From an uncultured Myxococcales bacterium (lineage in GTDB: Bacteria > Myxococcota_A > UBA9042 > CAIXZC01): DNA of 64,000 bases. A model generated the notes under the pieces. The model did not search any database and was not told the origin of the DNA. It saw only the letters and a program-made list of their open reading frames with translations. The position numbers and the translations under genes are program-made. The DNA lies in the NCBI GenBank assembly GCA_964593355.1, contig CAZQHM010000014.1, positions 1,269-65,268 of the forward strand, read 5' to 3'. Shown piece after piece: positions 33,294-64,000 of the stretch; within the stretch, counting starts at the first letter, position 1; each line of letters opens with the position of its first letter.

Positions 33294-33869
33294 TCAGTCG
33301 CTGGGTAGCCCCTCAGGCAAGTCGAAGCTCACTTGAGAACCACTGGACACCTTGTGTTTGGCACAATACCCCCCTGGAACCTCAAGCACATATAGGGACG
33401 GCACGCCTACCGATCGACTGGTTTCGTCTCTGGGCGTTGCGTTATGAATAATTCCTACCACCTTCTTGCTTGCGGATATGAAAATCATATCAAGTGGAAT
33501 CAGGGTGTTTTGCATCCAGAAGGGGTGCTCCGCCTCTTCCTGGAAGATGAAGAGCATACCTTTGCCCTCGGGCAGGATGGTTCGGTACTTGAGGCCGCGG
33601 CTGCGGTCTTCCTGCTTCACTACCACCTCGGCTTGAACCAGCAGAGGGGCACCTGCGTCGTCGGTGAGGGTCACCTGGGTGACGGGGTGTCTTGGCCGGT
33701 ACTTTGATGGGTCGCTCTCCTCGGCAGAGCCCGAGCCCGTGCGGCACGCAACCAGCAGGGCCAATGCTGCCAGGGAAATAACTCTCCGGAGGGCACGAAC
33801 AGGGGCCCGTGGGCAGGCTACGGCCGCAGAAATTGTCTGAGCGTTAGAAGCAGGAGATGGATTCGTCAT
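33294..33869 (-). CDS. DUF192 family protein
   Basis: RSRGLKYR..LPEGKGMLFIF, FWMQNTLIPLDMIFI, YVLEVPGG. The track ORF's upstream part overlaps another gene; start estimated at 33869. Confidence 0.8.
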   Translation of the reverse strand: MTNPSPASNAQTISAAVACPRAPVRALRRVISLAALALLVACRTGSGSAEESDPSKYRPRHPVTQVTLTDDAGAPLLVQAEVVVKQEDRSRGLKYRTILPEGKGMLFIFQEEAEHPFWMQNTLIPLDMIFISASKKVVGIIHNATPRDETSRSVGVPSLYVLEVPGGYCAKHKVSSGSQVSFDLPEGLPSD

Positions 33870-35784
33870 CAGAGAGAACCTCCAAGAAATCGTGGTCGTC
33901 AGGGGGGAGCACTCGCAGCAGGTATTCCATGCTGGGGGGGCCGAAAAACTCGGGGCCGTGGCCGTCAAGCTCGGCCCGTTCGAGGAAGGGGCGGGCCTTT
34001 CCTGCATCCATGAGCCATCCAGGGTTATCGCCGGAGTTGTGGTACTCTGCGGGCCGCTCGGGGACGTAGGCCAGCCCCAGGCTGTGCCCGATTTCGTGGG
34101 CCAGGGTTCCGCCAAGCAGGTTGCTGAGAACGCGAATCGCTTCCCACAGCTCATCCCCCTCAACCAACTCAGCCACTTGCTCTTCTGTAGCCGGGAGGCC
34201 GCCGAGGGGGGGGGCAAAGGGGCCGAAGATATCGTCGAACCTATCGGAGGCCAGGGCTTCGGTGCCATTGGCGAGGGTTGGACTGAATCCCATGAACGAG
34301 TTGATGAAGATGCCACCGTAGGCATAGTAGCCCCGCTCCCTGGTCTCGGCGTTCTTGCCACCGATTACGTCGTCGAAGCGCAGATTGCCGTCGTCCTTGC
34401 CAACGGTGTTGTCAAGGCCCAGCAGCCCCTTGCCGTTTGGATCTTCGCCGGCCATCTCGATGACCGAGTACTCGGCGAAGGCCGTGGGACGCTGGGTTAC
34501 GAAGCGTAGGTTGACCCCATCGTAGAAGCCCTGGGCCTTCTCTACCAGGCGCTGCTTGACCAAATGCCTGGCTTCCCAGAGACCGAACTGCTGGAACCCC
34601 ATGTCGAAGCTCTCCAAGAACTTCAGGTAGACCACCTGCAATGGGCGGGCAACGGTCAGCTCAACAGGAAAGGGCACTCCTCGCTGCTCCTGGTCGCCGA
34701 AGTAGACCACAGGGGTGGCCACGCCTCGAAACTGCCCCGGCTCCCTCCCCAGTTCTCCGCCCTCGGCCCCGCCTCCTGCCCTCAGGACCATTCGCATGAG
34801 GGAGGGGCATCGTGACTCTTCAGGGAAGAGCAAGAGGGAGTTCCTTCCGGCCATGTTTCTTCGGCCTCCGGCGAGGTCTGTGAACTCTCCTTCAAGCTCC
34901 AGCAGGGTGACAGCTCCGCTCTTGCTGCCTGGGGGCAGAAAGCCCCCTCCACGAACGTAGAGGTATTGGCCGCGGCGCACCACTTCGGGGAAGAGCTCTT
35001 GGATGAACGGGGGCGTGAGTTGCAATGACGTTGTGAGAGGCTCCGATGTGGTCTCCGGCAGGTTCTCAAGGTGTGGCCTGTTCACCAACTGTACGGTGCC
35101 CGAAAAACGGCCTGAGAGCACGGAGAAGAGCTCGGCGGGCACCTCGGCGGAAGCCAGGGTGCGGTCCACGGCGGTAAGTTCGAGTTCGTACGAAACCTCT
35201 AGTGGGGCCGCAGCAGGGTTATCGGGCTGGAAGCTGCCAGCAAAGAGGAGAGTGAGGGCCCCTTCTGAGGGGAGCAGGAGGCTGTGGCCGTGAACAAGGA
35301 TCTGTTCTCCCAGGGAGAAACTGGTCGGCGAGATCTGATGGAGGATGGGGTTCAGGGTCAACTGGGCGGTCAGGGTGAAACTGAGCCGGGTTTTGGTGCG
35401 ATGGCCGCTCTGGGTTAGCAGGGCCTCGGCCACGGCTACGCAGGATGCTCCGTTGGGGGCTTTCTGGATGGCCTCAATGAAGCGCAGGGGGAGGGCAAGC
35501 TCTGCCGTGCGCTGGTCTAGGACAACGGCTTCTCCGGAGTGGCTTGCCGAGCCTCCGGGCCACGTGGCGCTCAGTCGTATTCTTAGCGAGCCCACATCCT
35601 TGGTGGGGAATCCGTCGCCGTAGAAGATCAGGTTGGTGCCGGGGACAACGGTGCTGGGCGTCACCATCTCCAGGAGCAGATTCTGGGACCCATCCCCGTC
35701 AGCGGAAGAGCCGCAGCCGTGCGAGGCAACCACCAGTGCTGCCAAAGCGACCATGCCCAAACTCTTGCCCGGTGCCAACCCCAT
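33844..35784 (-). CDS. Lipoprotein with Ig/IPT-like repeats and C-terminal zinc-metallopeptidase-like domain
   Basis: Lipobox SHGC; repeated P....G..L...G.GF segments; AHEIGHSLGL (HEXXH), downstream YHN and WLMD. Confidence 0.7.
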   Translation of the reverse strand: MGLAPGKSLGMVALAALVVASHGCGSSADGDGSQNLLLEMVTPSTVVPGTNLIFYGDGFPTKDVGSLRIRLSATWPGGSASHSGEAVVLDQRTAELALPLRFIEAIQKAPNGASCVAVAEALLTQSGHRTKTRLSFTLTAQLTLNPILHQISPTSFSLGEQILVHGHSLLLPSEGALTLLFAGSFQPDNPAAAPLEVSYELELTAVDRTLASAEVPAELFSVLSGRFSGTVQLVNRPHLENLPETTSEPLTTSLQLTPPFIQELFPEVVRRGQYLYVRGGGFLPPGSKSGAVTLLELEGEFTDLAGGRRNMAGRNSLLLFPEESRCPSLMRMVLRAGGGAEGGELGREPGQFRGVATPVVYFGDQEQRGVPFPVELTVARPLQVVYLKFLESFDMGFQQFGLWEARHLVKQRLVEKAQGFYDGVNLRFVTQRPTAFAEYSVIEMAGEDPNGKGLLGLDNTVGKDDGNLRFDDVIGGKNAETRERGYYAYGGIFINSFMGFSPTLANGTEALASDRFDDIFGPFAPPLGGLPATEEQVAELVEGDELWEAIRVLSNLLGGTLAHEIGHSLGLAYVPERPAEYHNSGDNPGWLMDAGKARPFLERAELDGHGPEFFGPPSMEYLLRVLPPDDHDFLEVLSDDESISCF

Positions 35785-35869: not shown

Positions 35870-37195
35870 TCAGATCAATATTGCTGGGTCGCTTTGGGCG
35901 GCGAAGCTCAGGTTCTTCTCTCGTGTAGATTGGGAGCGAATCTGTTGGATGGCCTGTTCCAGGGCCTCGAAGGGGAAGGGGGCCCGGCTTTTCAGGTAGG
36001 CAGCGATTGCCACGGTCACGAGGAACTCTTTAGGAACTCTGCCCGGGAAGCGTTGGAGATCCAGGGTCAGCGTCGGAGCGGCGGACTGGAGCGGCGGCAG
36101 GTCGGCCAGTAGGATAATGAGTTGGTCGGGCTCCATGGTCGCTGCCAGCTTCCGAGCCTTCTTGTGCCCCTCCTCGGAGAGAACTATGAGGACGTCAGGC
36201 GACGAGAGTCCCATGTAGCCGATGGGGTCTGGGGAGACTTTGAGGTAGGAGACCGAGTGGCCTGTCTGGACGGTCACAGGGTAGTCGTCGCTCTGGACGG
36301 CATAGAGTCCCGAGAGGATTGCGGCTCGTCCAAGGGTAGTGGCGAAGGACTTGATTTTCATGCCAGCGGAGCCGGCGACAACGATATCGAAGGGTGCCTT
36401 GATATTTGAGGAGAAGGTGTGTTCCAGGCCCTCCTCGGGTTTGGCCTCCATGTGTTGGACCTTGTCCCGATACTCGGCCAGGGCCCGGGTGTATTCGGTG
36501 CGGTTCTCCACGATGCGAGTCATTCTGGGCACTTCGGAATCAAGCAGCTCTTCGATCTGCTTCTTGCCGAACTTGTTCCAGGGCGAGAAGTATGCGGTGC
36601 AGAGTTCCAGCACCTCAACGAAGGCCAAGCCGTCGAAGGCGATGGCTTGGGCGAGGGTCTCCACCAAGTCTTCATCAAAGAAGCCGCGTCGTGCCACGAA
36701 GGGGGCGCCATTGAGGGCCAGGGTTTCGCAGAGCATGAGTGGGTGTTCGAAGTGGCCGCCGGGGGTAGTGGAGGTGACGGTGCCTTCGGGGGTAGCAATG
36801 GAGTGCTCGCCGCCGGTCATGCCAAAGTTGAAGTTGTTCATGAGCAGGACGGTCACGCCGATGTTACGTTTCGCAAGGTTCAGGAGGTGATGCCCGCCGA
36901 TACCTGCGCCGCCGTCACCCATGACCACGATGACGTGGAGGGATGGGTCAGAGAGCTTGATACCTTCTGCATAGGTCATGCTTCGCCCGTGAAGGCCGTG
37001 AAATGCGTGGGTATTGAACCACTGGTCCGAGAGGCCGCTGCAGCCAATGTCCGTTACAATAACTGTCTTGGCCGGGTCCAGCGCCAGCTTCACCATTGCT
37101 GCGTCCAGGTCATGGAGCAGCTTGCTGTGCGAGCAGCCTGGGCAGAAGGGTAGGGGGAGGCGCTTCTGGTCCATGTAGGTTGTGGGGCTGTTCAT
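35870..37195 (-). CDS. 2-oxoacid:ferredoxin oxidoreductase beta (TPP-binding) subunit fused to a gamma-type domain
   Basis: FCPGCSH, DIGCS, LHGRS, GDGG...NNFNFGMTGG; C-terminal IVVAGSAGMKIKS...PDVLIVLS gamma-like domain. Confidence 0.9.
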   Translation of the reverse strand: MNSPTTYMDQKRLPLPFCPGCSHSKLLHDLDAAMVKLALDPAKTVIVTDIGCSGLSDQWFNTHAFHGLHGRSMTYAEGIKLSDPSLHVIVVMGDGGAGIGGHHLLNLAKRNIGVTVLLMNNFNFGMTGGEHSIATPEGTVTSTTPGGHFEHPLMLCETLALNGAPFVARRGFFDEDLVETLAQAIAFDGLAFVEVLELCTAYFSPWNKFGKKQIEELLDSEVPRMTRIVENRTEYTRALAEYRDKVQHMEAKPEEGLEHTFSSNIKAPFDIVVAGSAGMKIKSFATTLGRAAILSGLYAVQSDDYPVTVQTGHSVSYLKVSPDPIGYMGLSSPDVLIVLSEEGHKKARKLAATMEPDQLIILLADLPPLQSAAPTLTLDLQRFPGRVPKEFLVTVAIAAYLKSRAPFPFEALEQAIQQIRSQSTREKNLSFAAQSDPAILI

Positions 37196-38316
37196 AGCAG
37201 TTTCCCTCCTGCGATGACCTCGGGGACGGAGATGAGGCCGCCGTCGATTTTGGGCACCGGAATCAACTCAACGTCGTGTGGAAGCAGCGCCTTGATGGAG
37301 ATGGCGTACTGTCCCATGTTCATCTCGGGGAGTACCACTTTCCTAACGCCTTTGAGCGCCTTAGCCAGGGCCTCTTCGGGTTCCGGGTAGAGCGATTCGA
37401 CTACCATGAGCGAGCACTTGCCGCCCCGGCGTCTCACTTCGGCCACGGTTTCTCTGCAGACCGGGCCGTTTACTCCGTGGGCCATGAGCAGGGTATCGGC
37501 CCCCTCCTCCATATCGGTTTGCACGGTCTCGATCATTGAGCGGTTGGCGAGGATTTTGGCTTCGAGGTGTCGCAGCTTGGCCTCAATCTCTTCGGGGACC
37601 TTGGTGAGGTAGCCGTTGGGGTCGTGCATGGAGCCGGTGAACCTGGTGAGCAGGGGGCCACCAACGGGGGCGAAGGGTGGGACGGATCCTGGGCCCTGGA
37701 TTGGGTATGGGACGAAGGGGGCCTCACCCTGGTAGAGCGTGCGTGAGAGGACCTCGGGCATCACAAGCTTCTCTTTGTCCAGGGTGTGGGTTGAGAGCAC
37801 CATGTCCTTCTGGGTGAGCAGAATCACGGGCACTCTGAGCAACTCGGCGATGTTGAAGGCCTTGACGGTCAGGGTAATCAGCGACTCTATGCTGGAGGGG
37901 CAGAGGACCACCATGGGGATACCGCCCGGGGCAATCCAGCGGGAGAACTGGATATCGCCCTGGGCGCCAGTGGTAGCGCCGCCGGTGGAGGGTCCCAGGC
38001 GCTGCACGTCAACTATGACCATGGGGACCTCGCCCAGGATGGCCATACCGATAGTCTCGGAGTAGAGGCTCATGCCGGGGCCGCTGGTGGCGGTGAATGC
38101 CTTCTTACCGGTCATAGCGGCGCCGAGGCACATTCCGATGGAGGCGATCTCGTCCTCGCCCTGAACGGCCACACCGCCCCTCTTTGGAAGTTCCTGCATC
38201 ATCTTGATGAGGATGCCCGTAGCCGGGGTAATTGGATAGCCGGCGAAGAAGTCGGTGCCGGCGTAGAGCGCCCCACGACAAATCGCCTCGGCGCCGTCGA
38301 TGAACTCATAGCGCAT
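37192..38316 (-). CDS. 2-oxoacid:ferredoxin oxidoreductase alpha subunit
   Basis: DGAEAI, FFAGYPITPAT, QGEDEIAS, TSGPGMSL, DVQRLGPSTG; ATGA overlap with the beta subunit. Confidence 0.93.
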   Translation of the reverse strand: MRYEFIDGAEAICRGALYAGTDFFAGYPITPATGILIKMMQELPKRGGVAVQGEDEIASIGMCLGAAMTGKKAFTATSGPGMSLYSETIGMAILGEVPMVIVDVQRLGPSTGGATTGAQGDIQFSRWIAPGGIPMVVLCPSSIESLITLTVKAFNIAELLRVPVILLTQKDMVLSTHTLDKEKLVMPEVLSRTLYQGEAPFVPYPIQGPGSVPPFAPVGGPLLTRFTGSMHDPNGYLTKVPEEIEAKLRHLEAKILANRSMIETVQTDMEEGADTLLMAHGVNGPVCRETVAEVRRRGGKCSLMVVESLYPEPEEALAKALKGVRKVVLPEMNMGQYAISIKALLPHDVELIPVPKIDGGLISVPEVIAGGKLL

Positions 38317-38353
38317 GGGTTGACTCCGTTTGGATGTGTTGTCTGGTGGTGTC

Positions 38354-39523
38354 CTACCTGAAGGCAGGGATGCCCGTAATCTCGTTACCGAGGATCAGGG
38401 TGTGGATGTCGTGAGTGCCCTCGTAGGTGAAGACCGACTCGAGGTTGTTCATGTGGCGGATTGCTCCGTACTCGGTGGTGATGCCGTTGGCACCCAGAAC
38501 CGAGCGGGCCAGGCGGGCGATTTCCAGGGCATGGTGGACGTTGTTGCGTTTCACCATGGAGACGTGGAAGTGTTTGCCCTTGCCTTCATCCATGAGGCGT
38601 CCGACCTGGAGGGTCATGAACTGCATCTTGGTGATTTCCGTGAGCATATAGACCAGCTTCTGCTGGGTGATCTGGAAGCCGCCGATGGGCTTGCCGAACT
38701 GCTTACGTTCGAGGCTGTACTGAAGGGCCTCGTCGTAGCAGGCCATAGCAGCACCGATGGCGCCCCAGGCGATGCCGTATCTGGCGCTGGTGAGGCACAA
38801 GAGGGGCATCTTCATGCTGTTGGTGCCGGGTAGCACGTTCTCCAGGGGGATAACGCAGTCATCGAAGACCAGCTCCGAGGTTACCGAGGCCCTCAGCGAC
38901 ATCTTTCTGTGCTGTTCGGGGGCTGTGAATCCGGGGGTTCCCTTCTCTACCAGGAAGCCGCGCACGGTGCCCTCTTCATCCTTGGCCCATACCACGGCAA
39001 CATCGGCGATGGTGCCGTTTGTGATCCACATCTTGGCGCCGTTGAGCACCCAGGTGTTTCCATCACGCTTGGCTCTGGTTGCCATGTTGCCCGGGTCGCT
39101 TCCATGGTCGGGCTCGGTGAGTCCGAAGCAGCCAATGGCCTCGCCCGTGGCCAGTTTAGGCAGCCACTTACGCTTCTGCTCTTCGCTGCCCCAGCTATAA
39201 ATGGGATACATCACGAGGGATGACTGGACGGAGCAGAAGCTGCGAACGCCGCTGTCTCCACGCTCAAGTTCCTGCATGGCGATGCCGTACTGGGTGTAGC
39301 TTGCGTTGGCGCATCCGTATTCTTCCGGCAGCGTCATACCGAAAAGACCAAGCTCGGCCATGCCGCCGACGAGTTCCTTGGGGAAGACGTGCTGGTCGAA
39401 GGCGGGTCCGATAACCGGCATAACCTTCTCGTCAACCCAGCGACGGCAAGTGTCCTGAAGAATGATCTCCTCTTCGGAGAGAAGTCTCTTGAACTGCAAG
39501 AAATCCACGCCCTTAAATGCCAT
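38354..39523 (-). CDS. gcdH: Glutaryl-CoA dehydrogenase
   Basis: ELERGDSGVRSFCSVQSSLVMYPI, GCFGLTEPDHGSDP, SLRASVTSE, ARYGIAWG, RHMNNLESVFTYEGTHDIHTLILG: the glutaryl-CoA dehydrogenase clade of acyl-CoA dehydrogenases. Confidence 0.88.
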   Translation of the reverse strand: MAFKGVDFLQFKRLLSEEEIILQDTCRRWVDEKVMPVIGPAFDQHVFPKELVGGMAELGLFGMTLPEEYGCANASYTQYGIAMQELERGDSGVRSFCSVQSSLVMYPIYSWGSEEQKRKWLPKLATGEAIGCFGLTEPDHGSDPGNMATRAKRDGNTWVLNGAKMWITNGTIADVAVVWAKDEEGTVRGFLVEKGTPGFTAPEQHRKMSLRASVTSELVFDDCVIPLENVLPGTNSMKMPLLCLTSARYGIAWGAIGAAMACYDEALQYSLERKQFGKPIGGFQITQQKLVYMLTEITKMQFMTLQVGRLMDEGKGKHFHVSMVKRNNVHHALEIARLARSVLGANGITTEYGAIRHMNNLESVFTYEGTHDIHTLILGNEITGIPAFR

Positions 39524-39874: not shown

Positions 39875-40090
39875 GGGCCGCTCAGGCCCTTCGATGGGAG
39901 CCGGCCGAAGGACGAGTCGAGGGGGGGACGAGAATGGCGAGCAGTGGTCTAGCAGGCACCGCTAGGGCCACGTATCGGCGCATCATTCCTCTTGACCTAA
40001 TCAGCGATCAAGCATAGCTTTCACCTAGTCTACCATAGCCCTTAGGTATGGTGGTTTGCGCTAACACCTCAAACGGGACAAGGGTGCCCC

Positions 40091-41335
40091 ATGACTACAG
40101 TTGCTCTGCCGTATTGCCCTAGGAACGTAATAACCTGTTCTGTGCTATGTGCGCCCGCTTCATTCCCGCCGCTCATGCAATATCCAGTGAAGCGAGGTTC
40201 CTTGTCTGGCCTTAATCTGGCTGCTCTATTGCTAATGCTGCTTCTTCCCGTGATAGTGCATGGCAAGGAGGTTTCGGCCGATCCCTGCACATACAAAAAA
40301 CCAATGCGGTCAGCATTGTCCAATGTTCGGGATTGGGTGGGAGTTTCACTAGCCTATGAATATAGTGTCTTTGACGTTGAATCGGAGCTTCAAGGAGATG
40401 TTCCTGTTTTGCAGGACTTTCCGGTACTGCAGTACTCACATTCTCATGATTTTTTCTCCTTGTCTTTGTCGATACCATTTCTTACCGTACGCCGAGGCTG
40501 GAATCTCACAGAGCACAGCCTAGGGGGCAGCCGGGCAAGCTTCTCTCTTTGGGAGGTTGATTTGTATGCGTTAGATCGTATTCCAGCGCTTTCTATGTAC
40601 AATCCTCAGCGTGATGCGGAACGCGATTGTTCGTATAATAAAGCCATCGAAAAATGGGAGGCAGAGGGAGGAAGAGGAAGGAGGCCAGCTAAGACTGGCG
40701 GTGCGCCGGCTTGGATCTTCCCATTTATGTCATCGAGCTTTAGAAGTATGGAAATGTCCACTGACAATCATTATAAATCATTGACAGAGTTATATTTTTT
40801 ACTGTTTATTGGATATCAACAGCAATCAGACAGGGTTTCTGCTGGCAACGATACGTACAGTATGGAATCTACCAAAATAGGCTTTTTCTTTTCGCAAGGA
40901 TTTTTGAATATGTCAAGTTTGATGCGCTATATTTACCACCGATACGGTAGCGATGTCTTTTCGGAGCAAAAGGGTAGTGGAGAAGGGGAGGCTCAGTACA
41001 TAAATTTACTATTGCATCATATTGTCGCATTTGACAATGGAATGGTGCTGCTAAGTATTATCCCAGGGTTTGATCTTTACTATGCGTCAAACGAGATTAG
41101 AAATGGCAGCTCTAGGCAGGATGGTTCAGGAGGGGCGGCCGCGTTCGTTCCGGGCCTTGTGCTAAATGCTGTATGGGTTACTGATTGGGTTAACGCAGTG
41201 TTTACTTCCGTGGTGTATTATAGGCTTGGGAAAGAATGGCTTTCTGGGGTGCCTGATGGTATGCAAGAAGAGGTCGAGTTTACCAACTCAATCAGCGGAC
41301 TGGCTGGCAGTGCCAGTCTTTCGATTCAGTTTTAG
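40091..41335 (+). CDS. Hypothetical low-GC protein, possibly outer-membrane
   Basis: Open 414-aa frame, hydrophobic segment near the N-terminus, terminal Phe (LSIQF); visibly AT-richer than flanks. True start may be downstream of 40091. Confidence 0.55.
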   Translation: MTTVALPYCPRNVITCSVLCAPASFPPLMQYPVKRGSLSGLNLAALLLMLLLPVIVHGKEVSADPCTYKKPMRSALSNVRDWVGVSLAYEYSVFDVESELQGDVPVLQDFPVLQYSHSHDFFSLSLSIPFLTVRRGWNLTEHSLGGSRASFSLWEVDLYALDRIPALSMYNPQRDAERDCSYNKAIEKWEAEGGRGRRPAKTGGAPAWIFPFMSSSFRSMEMSTDNHYKSLTELYFLLFIGYQQQSDRVSAGNDTYSMESTKIGFFFSQGFLNMSSLMRYIYHRYGSDVFSEQKGSGEGEAQYINLLLHHIVAFDNGMVLLSIIPGFDLYYASNEIRNGSSRQDGSGGAAAFVPGLVLNAVWVTDWVNAVFTSVVYYRLGKEWLSGVPDGMQEEVEFTNSISGLAGSASLSIQF

Positions 41336-41420
41336 AGGAGGCTGGCACCTACATCGGAACTACGGTCCTTTGCCAGGGCTCTGGCCGTGGCCGTGGCCGT
41401 GGCCGCATTGTAGTGACGGG

Positions 41421-43247
41421 CTACTCGGTGCATTCGGGGGGGAGGCAGAGCGAGGCGCCGGGTTGGGTCGAGGAGACTGGGAAGGGGTCCCAGGTTGGGA
41501 GGACCTGGTTGGTGACGATGTTGCCCAAGGTACCATTCTCGCCTGCCCCATCGGCTGTGAATGTCAGTTTCTGCTGCAGGTTGCCGGCCTGCTCAAGCCA
41601 CTCTGAGCCATTCTGCAGGACAACTCCGGCAGTATCATTGCCGGCGACGACGTTGCCGTCTCCCACGGCGATGCTGCCTTGCTGGCAGCCGTCAACAAGA
41701 AGGCCGGACCTGTTGTTGTTTACGATCTTATTGTTGGTAAGAAGCGTTGTTCCTGCGCCATCTAAATCTCTGAGGTATATGCCGTCAGCCATATCGACGA
41801 AGGCGTTTGAGTCGAAGACATAGTACGGCGCTTCGGAGAGACCAGAAATGTTGTTCCCGTCCAGAAGTTCTACCGTTGAGGCAACCACAGAGACTCCGAC
41901 GCCTTTGAGGTCGAGGATCTCGTTCTGGGCCACCTCTGCAACCAGGGAGGCTGATTGGACGAAGAGCCCGCCCAGTTCCGTGGTGGAAACCAGGTTGCCC
42001 ACCAGAGAGCCCGTCTCCACGGCGTTGAGCAGAACGCCAACTCGTCCGCAGCCGCTAAGATGGTTGTTGGTGAGGCGCACTTGGGCCTCGCCGCTTTCTG
42101 TGATGAAGATGCAATCTCCCGTGGCCACTCCCGACTGAGGCACGTTGCTAACGGTGGTATTCTCGACGGTGAGCCCGGACCCCCACGAGGCGATACCAAA
42201 GGCGTTGTTGTCCAGCACGAGAGTGGACTTCACGCTGCTTGGTGCGCCAGAGGAAGCAGAGGCCGATACTGCCAGGCCACCGCAGAAGTTGCCCTTGATG
42301 ATGGAGTGCTCAATGTCGAAGGCCGAGTCGAAGAGCAGAACTCCCCAGCCATCAGAATCGGTTATGACAAGGCCGGCCGTCTGCTCCGACGGCTCCTCGT
42401 TGAGTGCCATTTCCGTTCGGGCACGCACCGTGATGGTGACGCCGCCATCGCCGGCGATGGCAGCGGCAGGCTTCTGTTCACATTGGTCGGGTGAGGTGGA
42501 GTCTCCCACGCTGGAGATTGCTACGCCTCGCAGTTGTACGGTGCCGCCCTTGGCTACTAACCCAAAAGCCGTGGCCTCTTTGATCAGCACGTCTCCAATC
42601 TCAGTGGAGGCCACGCCCGTCAGTGCAATGGCAGTATGGCCCCCGGAGAACTCCATGTCGGAGAGAGCCAGCGAAGCGGTGTCGCTGACACTAAGGCCGA
42701 CGCCTCCCTTGCCGGCTTCCACGGTCATGGCCAGAATCTGGACTGTTTGGGCGTCGCTGACAGCAAGGGCCGCCACGCCGGGTTCGCCCTGGAGACGTAT
42801 TCGGTCTCGCCCCGGGCCCAGGAGGCTCAAATCGCCTTGCACCGCAACGGACTCTTCGTAGGTGCCGGCCGCCAGTGCGTACTTCCCCGGTCCCGATGCT
42901 GCCACTGCCTCAGCGAGGCTGGGGTAGGGCCGGGCCAAGGAGCCGTCTGCGGTTCCCTCGTAGGCACAGCAGGGGTTCACGAAGAGAACGTCTTGGTTAG
43001 CCACACCGTCGGCGTATCTGGCAAGGCCGCACAACTCCTCACCACCGCAGAGATACTCGGGAAGGTTGGAGCTATCCTCGGCCACATCACCAGGGGTCCC
43101 GCTCTGATTGCCCTCGCCGCCTGAGCAACCGTGGAGCAGGAGCAGAGCAGACATGAGGATGAACAGGGGGCGACGGAGGGGGCGGTTTCTGGGCTCTAAT
43201 TCCTGCTTGAACATCATTCTAGACGAACACATGTCCTTCCTCCACAT
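41421..43247 (-). CDS. Right-handed parallel beta-helix lipoprotein (DUF1565-like N-terminal motif)
   Basis: Lipobox LHGC; GSLARPYPSLAEAV...LAAGTYEE; repeated beta-helix coils. Start uncertain. Confidence 0.75.
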   Translation of the reverse strand: MWRKDMCSSRMMFKQELEPRNRPLRRPLFILMSALLLLHGCSGGEGNQSGTPGDVAEDSSNLPEYLCGGEELCGLARYADGVANQDVLFVNPCCAYEGTADGSLARPYPSLAEAVAASGPGKYALAAGTYEESVAVQGDLSLLGPGRDRIRLQGEPGVAALAVSDAQTVQILAMTVEAGKGGVGLSVSDTASLALSDMEFSGGHTAIALTGVASTEIGDVLIKEATAFGLVAKGGTVQLRGVAISSVGDSTSPDQCEQKPAAAIAGDGGVTITVRARTEMALNEEPSEQTAGLVITDSDGWGVLLFDSAFDIEHSIIKGNFCGGLAVSASASSGAPSSVKSTLVLDNNAFGIASWGSGLTVENTTVSNVPQSGVATGDCIFITESGEAQVRLTNNHLSGCGRVGVLLNAVETGSLVGNLVSTTELGGLFVQSASLVAEVAQNEILDLKGVGVSVVASTVELLDGNNISGLSEAPYYVFDSNAFVDMADGIYLRDLDGAGTTLLTNNKIVNNNRSGLLVDGCQQGSIAVGDGNVVAGNDTAGVVLQNGSEWLEQAGNLQQKLTFTADGAGENGTLGNIVTNQVLPTWDPFPVSSTQPGASLCLPPECTE

Positions 43248-62638: not shown

Positions 62639-64000
<1,362 letters not shown>

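Follow-up and report, generated by a model that had tools for sequence, protein, structure and literature searches.

A three-gene unit on the minus strand of the window (the whole 64,000-nucleotide stretch of DNA that was analysed) encodes a glutaryl-CoA dehydrogenase (GcdH) and a two-protein 2-oxoacid:ferredoxin oxidoreductase (OFOR). We consider it probable, from gene content here and in other lineages, that this operon encodes the enzymes for the two final committed reactions of the 2-aminoadipate route of lysine degradation, with the OFOR acting on 2-oxoadipate. That the OFOR makes glutaryl-CoA from 2-oxoadipate for GcdH had been suggested in an earlier note on this DNA, and genomic context leaves it the best-supported candidate reading. 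The OFOR (alpha plus beta-gamma, with TPP and one [4Fe-4S] cluster) would convert 2-oxoadipate and CoA to glutaryl-CoA by oxidative decarboxylation, handing two electrons to free ferredoxin. GcdH would then oxidize and decarboxylate glutaryl-CoA to crotonyl-CoA and pass electrons to ETF, from which they would probably reach the quinone pool via a membrane Fe-S oxidoreductase encoded beside etfBA. We infer 2-oxoadipate as the OFOR substrate, ferredoxin as its partner and a transaminase as the source of 2-oxoadipate. To our knowledge, textbooks take 2-oxoadipate to glutaryl-CoA only through a lipoate- and NAD-dependent dehydrogenase complex, and a full-text literature search found no published description of a ferredoxin-dependent enzyme for this conversion. 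If the proposed function is correct, lysine could be degraded via aminoadipate with no need of the complex while yielding reduced ferredoxin, and possibly tryptophan-derived 2-oxoadipate could be too.

Organization of the gcdH-OFOR unit

The unit comprises the following features.

38354-39523, minus strand: gcdH, heading the unit; product P0003 (389 aa), a predicted decarboxylating glutaryl-CoA dehydrogenase
37192-38316, minus strand: OFOR alpha, domains I-II, without an N-terminal gamma domain (374 aa, P0002)
35870-37195, minus strand: beta-gamma fusion (441 aa, P0001)
36551-37195, minus strand: beta part of P0001 (domain VI, residues 1-215), TPP and proximal [4Fe-4S] binding
35873-36391, minus strand: gamma part of P0001 (domain III, residues 269-441), C-terminal on beta; stop codon at 35870-35872

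The three genes were confirmed to form one tight unit, as the earlier note had described. The gcdH stop lies 37 nt from the alpha start, with a GGAG-type ribosome site, the alpha and beta-gamma reading frames overlap by 4 nt (ATGA), and a terminator and promoter scan found nothing above shuffled-sequence level between the genes. Metatranscriptome contigs from four activated-sludge runs match gcdH, the 5′ portion of alpha and the beta-gamma 3′ end; DNA carry-over is possible, none of these contigs bridges a gene junction, contigs cannot show transcripts, and the lack of coverage on the flanks carries no weight as evidence. The unit lacks a delta/ferredoxin gene, and the gamma domain sits on beta. 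Both features, singled out earlier as notable, are indeed seen in the reading frames and Pfam matches, but they make a weak argument, being family-wide traits in thousands of sequences.

The gcdH product has three ACAD domains (Pfam). Its PDB matches to GCDH (Thermus putative GCDH 2eba, 1e-137; human GCDH 1sir, 2e-125) compare with 3e-70 for a short-chain ACAD and 1e-60 for the non-decarboxylating Desulfococcus enzyme 3mpi, and it scores 411-463 bits to ten GCDH entries versus at most 253 bits to any other ACAD. DSGVRS and TYEGTHDIH line up residue by residue with DSGYRS and TYEGTHDIH of human GCDH, and both the carboxylate-binding arginine (DSGxRS) and the YEGT Tyr-Glu catalytic pair are present; in human numbering we take Arg94 to bind the free carboxylate of the substrate, and Tyr369 and Glu370 to be the catalytic pair. 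Judged by its sequence, the protein is a true decarboxylating GCDH.

The alpha/beta-gamma pair is a member of the OFOR superfamily, with the TPP motif, cluster cysteines, YPITP/Arg signature and domain III all found. Pfam assigns POR_N (169 bits) and PFOR_II (41 bits) to alpha, and TPP_enzyme_C (84 bits) and the gamma-type POR domain (43 bits, residues 283-429) to beta-gamma. Neither subunit has an NCBIfam equivalog, every score being under cut-off: the best match for alpha is PRK08659 (344 bits, cut-off 411), and the 2-oxoglutarate-type models score 243 bits (PRK09627, cut-off 579) and 302 bits (TIGR03710, cut-off 483) for alpha and 137 bits (PRK09628, cut-off 364) for beta. P0001 carries the TPP motif GDGGAGIGG plus NN(F)N, invariant across the family alignment. 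Cys18, Cys21, Cys52 and Cys199 of beta align with the OorB cluster cysteines Cys19/22/53/202 (PMC12307629) and are conserved in 114-116 of 116 family rows. In alpha, YPITP occupies residues 27-31, and its Thr and Arg106 align with Thr256a and Arg344a of StOFOR1 (PMC5020499). Across 76 family members Arg106, the carboxylate-binding arginine, and Thr111 never vary, and the YPITP Thr is kept in 73 of them. The AlphaFold2 model of the gamma domain, mostly at pLDDT >90, resembles free gamma subunits (Foldseek TMt 0.76-0.78 for 3on3, 0.75 for 9bt4_E and 0.70 for OorC, 8ys5_B); in this model the CoA-binding gamma domain is well folded.

Lysine-pathway genes in this genome and in other lineages

The window's genome, which is 97% complete, has adjacent genes for LKR (L102:3936-5345; match to the human AASS LKR domain 8dda, 7e-77) and SDH (L102:5294-6682; match to yeast Lys9 2axq, 1.5e-92), as well as a P6C dehydrogenase (G000:C93:12694-14103; NF050084 736 bits, cut-off 730). 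The E1 of 2-oxoglutarate/2-oxoadipate dehydrogenase (TIGR00239) has no match in this genome, while control genomes were matched. Since LKR, SDH and P6C dehydrogenase are present and E1 was not found, the OFOR is the best candidate for the step from 2-oxoadipate to glutaryl-CoA. No 2-aminoadipate transaminase over cut-off was found in the genome; the best NF049976 scorer (183 bits, cut-off 650) is a class-III aminotransferase encoded at G000:C93:6509-7645, with the P6C dehydrogenase gene some 5 kb away. L-lysine 6-aminotransferase also had no match above cut-off. The sole family-III CoA-transferase is a fused double protein weakly like succinate-glutarate CoA-transferase, and was set aside as uninformative.

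Seven OFOR-type genes are present in the genome, and the six other loci can cover pyruvate, 2-oxoglutarate, and branched-chain and aromatic oxoacids. The earlier note had taken a separate PFOR as an argument against pyruvate. A large single-chain PFOR does start near position 62753 of the window (POR_N match at G000:C14:64021-64713), its 1212-aa frame continuing past the window end, but with seven such genes in the genome the argument is weak.

Neighbourhoods in other lineages support a 2-oxoadipate role more strongly, through LKR, SDH and P6C dehydrogenase, than the gcdH linkage does. In a Fibrobacterota MAG (L041), genes for P6C dehydrogenase (L-piperidine-6-carboxylate dehydrogenase; NF050084 787 bits, cut-off 730), LKR, SDH, alpha and beta-gamma follow one another on one strand. 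In three genomes from two families of the window's phylum (G034, G040 and G075), beta-gamma is followed on its own strand, after 53-88 bp, by an SDH ortholog. By a rough Poisson estimate, three independent lineages with LKR, SDH, P6C dehydrogenase or gcdH beside the family, in addition to the clade of the window, would arise by chance with a probability of 0.0003 to 0.001. Among 401 sampled genomes of the phylum, SDH occurs in 9 of the 10 OFOR-carrying genomes, which come from five families, versus 23 of the 391 without the OFOR (Fisher p 4e-10, an overstatement because the genomes are related). Because these neighbourhoods in unrelated bacteria tie to lysine breakdown, the OFOR family is a good candidate for an oxygen-free 2-oxoadipate step; the nearest characterised OFORs use 2-oxoglutarate, the C5 homologue of 2-oxoadipate.

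In G040, alpha, beta-gamma and SDH are followed by biosynthetic argC, argD, argB and an ArgE/DapE-family gene, an arrangement that would suit an enzyme running in reverse, as a 2-oxoadipate synthase that uses glutaryl-CoA, CO2 and reduced ferredoxin to feed lysine synthesis via aminoadipate and saccharopine. We regard this as highly improbable: in the window the OFOR is paired with a decarboxylating GCDH, an enzyme that in practice works in one direction only, and the P6C dehydrogenase in L041 is catabolic. The reverse direction would nevertheless agree with the reversibility of OFORs (PMC13768988) and with the homology of SDH to the biosynthetic fungal Lys9.

Evidence from other carriers of the family counts against a catabolic 2-oxoadipate role. 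Among ten diverse carrier genomes, five lack both gcdH and an Acd-type glutaryl-CoA dehydrogenase, SDH is found in only three, and gcdH and SDH are both missing from two. A gap-filling argument is impossible here, as all ten have 3-10 OFOR-type genes and four also have E1o. We propose only tentatively that the whole alpha/beta-gamma family is a dedicated 2-oxoadipate:ferredoxin oxidoreductase, an activity without an EC entry. If so, the family would stand in for the lipoate-dependent 2-oxoadipate dehydrogenase complex in bacteria without that complex and close saccharopine/aminoadipate lysine catabolism there, yielding low-potential electrons. Many metagenome genes labelled "2-oxoglutarate/pyruvate ferredoxin oxidoreductase beta" would then need renaming, and I-II plus VI-III would be a new domain order in the OFOR superfamily, with a substrate loop peculiar to it.

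Family distribution and the gcdH linkage

The alpha/beta-gamma layout occurs in thousands of database sequences from more than 10 phyla, and is thus a large, uncharacterised family and no local oddity. Linkage to gcdH is rare within it. The conserved linkage that the earlier note had looked to is present in the window's closest relatives (beta-gamma identity at least 63%) but not in about 100 other loci, apart from one distant MAG (L073) in which gcdH is divergently adjacent to alpha/beta-gamma. The gcdH-linked close relatives form one clade with 100% support. About 100 of some 113 family loci inspected have no lysine-pathway neighbour, and clustering the neighbours of 86 loci gave no gene common to more than six. 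A stand-alone housekeeping enzyme was favoured after this clustering and was dropped once SDH and LKR served as queries. A metagenome scan yielded 17 family loci, all without gcdH, LKR and SDH and one with a distant ACAD, and among 351 Chloroflexota genomes sampled (four candidates scored per genome) six were carriers.

The confinement of the linkage to one small clade and L073 could mean that gcdH and a housekeeping OFOR merely became neighbours in a small lineage, with accidental co-transcription and no shared function. In G001 and G002, two genomes of the same family, gcdH indeed lies on another contig than the OFOR. The window's OFOR copy also groups apart from the copies of its own taxonomic family, and the cassette accordingly looks recently acquired or reshuffled. 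Yet relatives with 80%, 75% and 63% beta-gamma identity keep the order of the cassette between differing flanking genes, genes of the same pathway surround the family elsewhere, and the OFOR co-occurs with SDH in the phylum sample; we thus find a chance association improbable.

Substrate pocket and known OFORs

Following the third cluster cysteine, the beta part of P0001 has Leu55, and 106 of 116 family rows have Leu here. In the relatives that use 2-oxoglutarate the residue is basic: Arg in OorB, the Magnetococcus marinus OGOR (MmOGOR) and one paralog of this genome (C16), Lys in StOFOR and a second paralog (C80). The basic residue of 2-oxoglutarate:ferredoxin oxidoreductases is therefore not present in this protein; in StOFOR1 it is Lys49b, and the K49bI mutant is without 2-oxoglutarate activity (PMC5020499). 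Since the paper on the Helicobacter pylori Oor enzyme gives no substrate contacts (PMC12307629), the role of this residue is judged from its conservation and from the StOFOR1 mutants. Leu55 matches the residue of a VOR-type paralog in the window's genome, and the mapped pocket is neutral (Thr111, Ser229, Leu55, Met126 and Val307, from alignments at about 30% identity). The gcdH-linked clade and its unlinked relatives show no difference at any mapped pocket position.

Such a pocket would suit an OFOR of broad specificity or one for non-acidic 2-oxoacids (e.g., 2-oxobutyrate or branched-chain), co-expressed with amino-acid catabolic genes but not itself making glutaryl-CoA, while another OFOR of the genome handles 2-oxoadipate. 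Non-gcdH ACADs directly beside the family at three loci (L017, Bcd/SCAD-like; L006; L118) and the presence of the family in genomes without gcdH or SDH point the same way. However, the pocket mapping depends on those low-identity alignments, and this explanation leaves the recurrence of LKR, SDH, P6C dehydrogenase and gcdH in independent lineages unaccounted for. We judge it unlikely, while noting that OFOR substrates are difficult to predict from sequence (PMC13147460), and retain 2-oxoadipate as the probable substrate.

Among known enzymes, the window's OFOR is close to the two-subunit StOFOR1/2 of Sulfolobus tokodaii (5B46-5B48) and MmOGOR (6N2N), which likewise bind TPP and a single [4Fe-4S] cluster, lack an internal ferredoxin domain, pass electrons to free ferredoxin and have YPITP plus Arg in alpha and four Cys in beta (alpha E 1e-33 to 6e-51; beta 2e-29 to 6e-31; Foldseek TMt 0.63-0.70). 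They differ in domain III, which is N-terminal on alpha (III-I-II plus VI) rather than C-terminal on beta (I-II plus VI-III), in the Lys/Arg that replaces Leu after the third cysteine, and in the loop, GLTKGQxS instead of GMTGG(E/Q)HS with a family-specific His131. H. pylori OorDABC (8YS5; PMC12307629) is the closest match of beta (E 5e-35, with a Foldseek TMt of 0.80; alpha 1e-52) and has the same cluster cysteines, whereas it consists of four separate subunits, including the two-cluster OorD and a free OorC, uses 2-oxoglutarate and has Arg in place of Leu55. The best PDB match of alpha (5e-65) is the Pyrococcus furiosus 2-keto acid:ferredoxin oxidoreductase alpha (1YD7), also a free alpha without gamma, from an enzyme that is multi-subunit, archaeal and without a beta-gamma fusion. 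We know of no substrate assigned to it. In mammals, the proposed pathway position of the OFOR and GcdH is taken by the DHTKD1 E1a/DLST/DLD complex followed by GCDH, and LKR and SDH of the window's genome each match one of the two domains that make up human AASS. The DHTKD1 complex belongs to another superfamily and uses lipoate and NAD, whereas the OFOR would work without either and deliver its electrons to ferredoxin.

The gcdH-OFOR unit and its enzymes

The gene for a glutaryl-CoA dehydrogenase (gcdH) and two genes for a 2-oxoacid:ferredoxin oxidoreductase (OFOR) occupy window positions 35870-39523, and the three minus-strand open reading frames claimed there by the earlier note match exactly in their coordinates.

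Genes of the unit, with Pfam domains
38354-39523, minus strand: gcdH, 389 aa; three acyl-CoA dehydrogenase (ACAD) domains
37192-38316, minus strand: OFOR alpha, 374 aa; POR_N and PFOR_II
35870-37195, minus strand: OFOR beta-gamma fusion, 441 aa; TPP_enzyme_C, then POR (gamma domain)

A 37-nt spacer with a GGAG-type ribosome site separates gcdH from alpha, the alpha and beta-gamma genes overlap by four bases, and consensus scans found no terminator signal above shuffle background between the three genes. The three-gene observation is confirmed. The flanking open reading frames (33844-35784, minus strand, 646 aa; 40091-41335, plus strand, 414 aa) have no Pfam or NCBIfam family match and are not retained beside the gene units of relatives. 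GC content is 51% at window positions 40001-42000 and about 60% elsewhere. The window DNA is almost completely represented in an activated-sludge metagenome run and partly in runs of other studies; RNA-library contigs cover gcdH and, within alpha and beta-gamma, short stretches; no contig spans a gene junction. At 38137-38823, contigs from the RNA libraries of two activated-sludge runs show, at low depth, six G>A changes each relative to the window and no other difference; these may be strain variants or errors.

Sequence comparison identifies the dehydrogenase as a true GcdH. In a PDB search its product scores 411-463 bits against ten glutaryl-CoA dehydrogenases (Thermus 2eba, 1e-137; human 1sir, 2e-125), compared with at most 253 bits for any other ACAD and only 209 bits for the non-decarboxylating Desulfococcus enzyme 3mpi. 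Furthermore, alignment to human GCDH matches the arginine of DSGxRS and the Tyr-Glu pair of YEGT, which we take to be Arg94 and Tyr369/Glu370 of the human enzyme.

The OFOR is intact and is a member of a large unnamed family, its subunits all scoring under the NCBIfam cut-offs. The beta part retains the GDGG...NN motif, and in the alignment its cysteines 18, 21, 52 and 199 take the positions of the cluster-ligating cysteines of H. pylori OorB (PMC12307629); alpha retains YPITP and the carboxylate-binding arginine (PMC5020499). The AlphaFold2 model of beta-gamma has a mean pLDDT of 85, mostly >90 across residues 269-441; in Foldseek its N-terminal half hits OFOR beta subunits and its C-terminal half hits stand-alone gamma subunits. 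Nearly all of the best 120 database relatives are fusions of 405-472 aa with both domains, from Chloroflexota, Acidobacteriota, Actinomycetota, Gemmatimonadota, Planctomycetota and others. The available text of a 2026 review describes one-subunit, alpha-beta (III-I-II plus VI), alpha'-beta', four-subunit and five-subunit PFOR/OFOR forms and there makes no mention of a VI-III fusion (PMC13768988), and as far as we could find the literature holds no study of the alpha/beta-gamma layout. Given the widespread fusions and that review, the layout is real, common in sequence data and apparently unstudied. Of two oddities raised earlier, the gamma domain on beta is genuine and widespread, and the lack of a delta subunit is the usual state of single-cluster OFORs working with free ferredoxin (PMC5020499). 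In a tree of beta-gamma proteins the window's OFOR stands apart from the copies of its own taxonomic family (38-46% identity) and groups with metagenome and Acidobacteriota sequences; this placement, and the presence of the OFOR family in just 10 of 401 sampled genomes of the phylum, suggests horizontal spread of the cassette.

Lysine-pathway genes in the genome and beside the OFOR family

The window's own genome (97% complete) has seven OFOR-type (POR_N) loci and no match to E1o/E1a (TIGR00239).

Further features of this genome
62753-64000, plus strand, running off the window: single-chain PFOR; POR_N 282 bits, 1212-aa frame
L102:3936-6682 (contig C66:11935-14681, outside the window): adjacent LKR-like and SDH-like genes
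L092:79-6282 (contig C181): etfB-etfA, the only pair in the genome, between a divergent 680-aa CCG/4Fe-4S membrane-type oxidoreductase and a 616-aa long ACAD

Along its whole length the LKR gene matches the human AASS LKR domain (8dda, 7e-77), and the SDH gene matches saccharopine dehydrogenase/reductase, namely yeast Lys9 (2axq, 1.5e-92) and the AASS SDH domain (5l78, 2e-80); the pair corresponds to the bifunctional animal and plant AASS divided into two genes, and NCBIfam gives neither a name despite these strong PDB matches. An L-piperidine-6-carboxylate (aminoadipate-semialdehyde; P6C) dehydrogenase on contig C93 scores above the equivalog cut-off, with an unassigned class-III aminotransferase 5 kb away. 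Since LKR, SDH and P6C dehydrogenase are present, the genome can, as judged from its genes, take lysine to 2-aminoadipate, and probably on to 2-oxoadipate; with a predicted GcdH also encoded, 2-oxoadipate to glutaryl-CoA is the sole pathway step otherwise lacking a candidate. The etfBA arrangement is that of anaerobic ETF:quinone modules and would offer GcdH an electron outlet.

Using this SDH as the query for a neighbourhood search, we found an ortholog that follows beta-gamma after 53-88 bp, on the same strand, in three genomes from two families of the phylum (G034, G040 and G075), all without gcdH. In a Fibrobacterota MAG (L041), P6C dehydrogenase (NF050084, 787 bits; cut-off 730), LKR, SDH, alpha and beta-gamma form a one-strand series. 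With a distant MAG (L073) that carries a gcdH-type gene, these contexts place P6C dehydrogenase, LKR, SDH or gcdH beside the OFOR family in four lineages beyond the window's clade. Three of these neighbours act upstream of the proposed step (P6C dehydrogenase, LKR, SDH) and one downstream (gcdH). The chance of three or more such lineages is 0.0003 to 0.001 by a generous Poisson estimate, rough and not a formal test, assuming each gene once per genome and 60-100 independent lineages. Among the 401 genomes of the phylum sample, SDH occurs in 9 of 10 OFOR carriers versus 23 of 391 genomes without the OFOR, a nominal p of 4e-10 that overstates the case because the ten carriers come from just five families.

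In G040 (contig C1; L121:1476-11494), the strand that carries alpha, beta-gamma and SDH continues with a 499-aa open reading frame without a family match, then argC, an argD-like gene, argB and an ArgE/DapE-family gene, so that a catabolic-looking trio adjoins a biosynthetic cluster.

gcdH linkage, substrate pocket and the 2-oxoadipate reading

The expectation that gcdH linkage would be conserved held among close relatives and failed in the wider family. The gcdH-alpha-beta-gamma order is kept, with different flanks, in relatives with beta-gamma identities of 80%, 75% and 63% (the contig of the last begins with the final 34 residues of a GcdH), and these form one clade with 100% support; no ACAD adjoins the OFOR in three inspectable contexts of the sister clade. 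Alpha precedes beta-gamma in all 80 species-genome loci, yet L073 is the one locus among them with a gcdH-type gene alongside (divergent, 138-bp gap), and 0 of 16 metagenome loci have one. Within the window's taxonomic family, a gcdH ortholog is present in the same genus, where it is linked, and otherwise only in G001 and G002, where it lies on another contig; a further six genomes carry the OFOR but no gcdH, five of them with an ACAD at 447-467 bits against the cut-off of 470 for the non-decarboxylating glutaryl-CoA dehydrogenase model. Of ten diverse OFOR carriers, five encode gcdH away from the OFOR; the other five lack both glutaryl-CoA dehydrogenase types. Judged on this survey alone, the 2-oxoadipate reading would be rather unlikely.

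Mapping from the StOFOR1 structure and mutants (PMC5020499) gives a side-chain pocket to which alpha contributes Thr111 and Ser229, beta contributes Leu55 and Met126, and gamma contributes Val307. Leu55 replaces the Lys of StOFOR1/2, whose K49bI mutation in StOFOR1 abolishes 2-oxoglutarate activity (PMC5020499), and the Arg of OorB and MmOGOR; among the genome's paralogs the position is Arg (Kor-type), Lys (OAFO-type) or Leu (VOR-type). No mapped pocket position differs between the gcdH-linked clade and its unlinked relatives. The family has its own loop, GMTGG(E/Q)HS, with His131 in 114 of 116 rows, a position filled by Ala, Thr, Tyr, Cys or Met in other OFORs; it would be speculative to have His131 contact the more distant carboxylate of a C6 substrate. 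According to a recent survey, OFOR substrates are not reliably sortable from sequence (PMC13147460). We treat the mapped pocket as genuine but soft counter-evidence to 2-oxoadipate. Non-gcdH ACAD types also lie directly beside the OFOR family (L017, L006 and L118). That of L017 (L017:8342-9538, Anaerolineales UBA2181), directly downstream of beta-gamma, is Bcd/SCAD-like overall, with an Arg in the GCDH carboxylate-binding column (DSSCRE versus DSGVRS). These ACADs are compatible with a general "2-oxoacid to acyl-CoA to enoyl-CoA" module and leave room for some substrate breadth.

We prefer the 2-oxoadipate reading because of the pathway hole, the GcdH operon and the independent neighbourhoods, which outweigh a single residue, the numerous loci whose neighbours are uninformative, and the carriers without gcdH or SDH; the latter may have other sources of aminoadipate or other outlets for glutaryl-CoA. 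Among the other readings, we regard a broader or non-acidic substrate as unlikely, an accidental gene order as improbable, and the reverse (synthase) direction as highly improbable. The earlier interpretation of this OFOR is therefore supported, entirely by comparative genomics, and the enzyme is probably a 2-oxoadipate:ferredoxin oxidoreductase. Its domain order and probable new substrate are what is new in an otherwise known kind of enzyme; this form is widespread and directly testable.

A KorAB/OAFO-type paralog beta subunit of the window's genome (L088:5568-6434, contig C80) reads IGQAAK at the site of the third cluster cysteine of other OFORs (IGCSGK/R); either the ligand is placed elsewhere or the cluster is bound differently.
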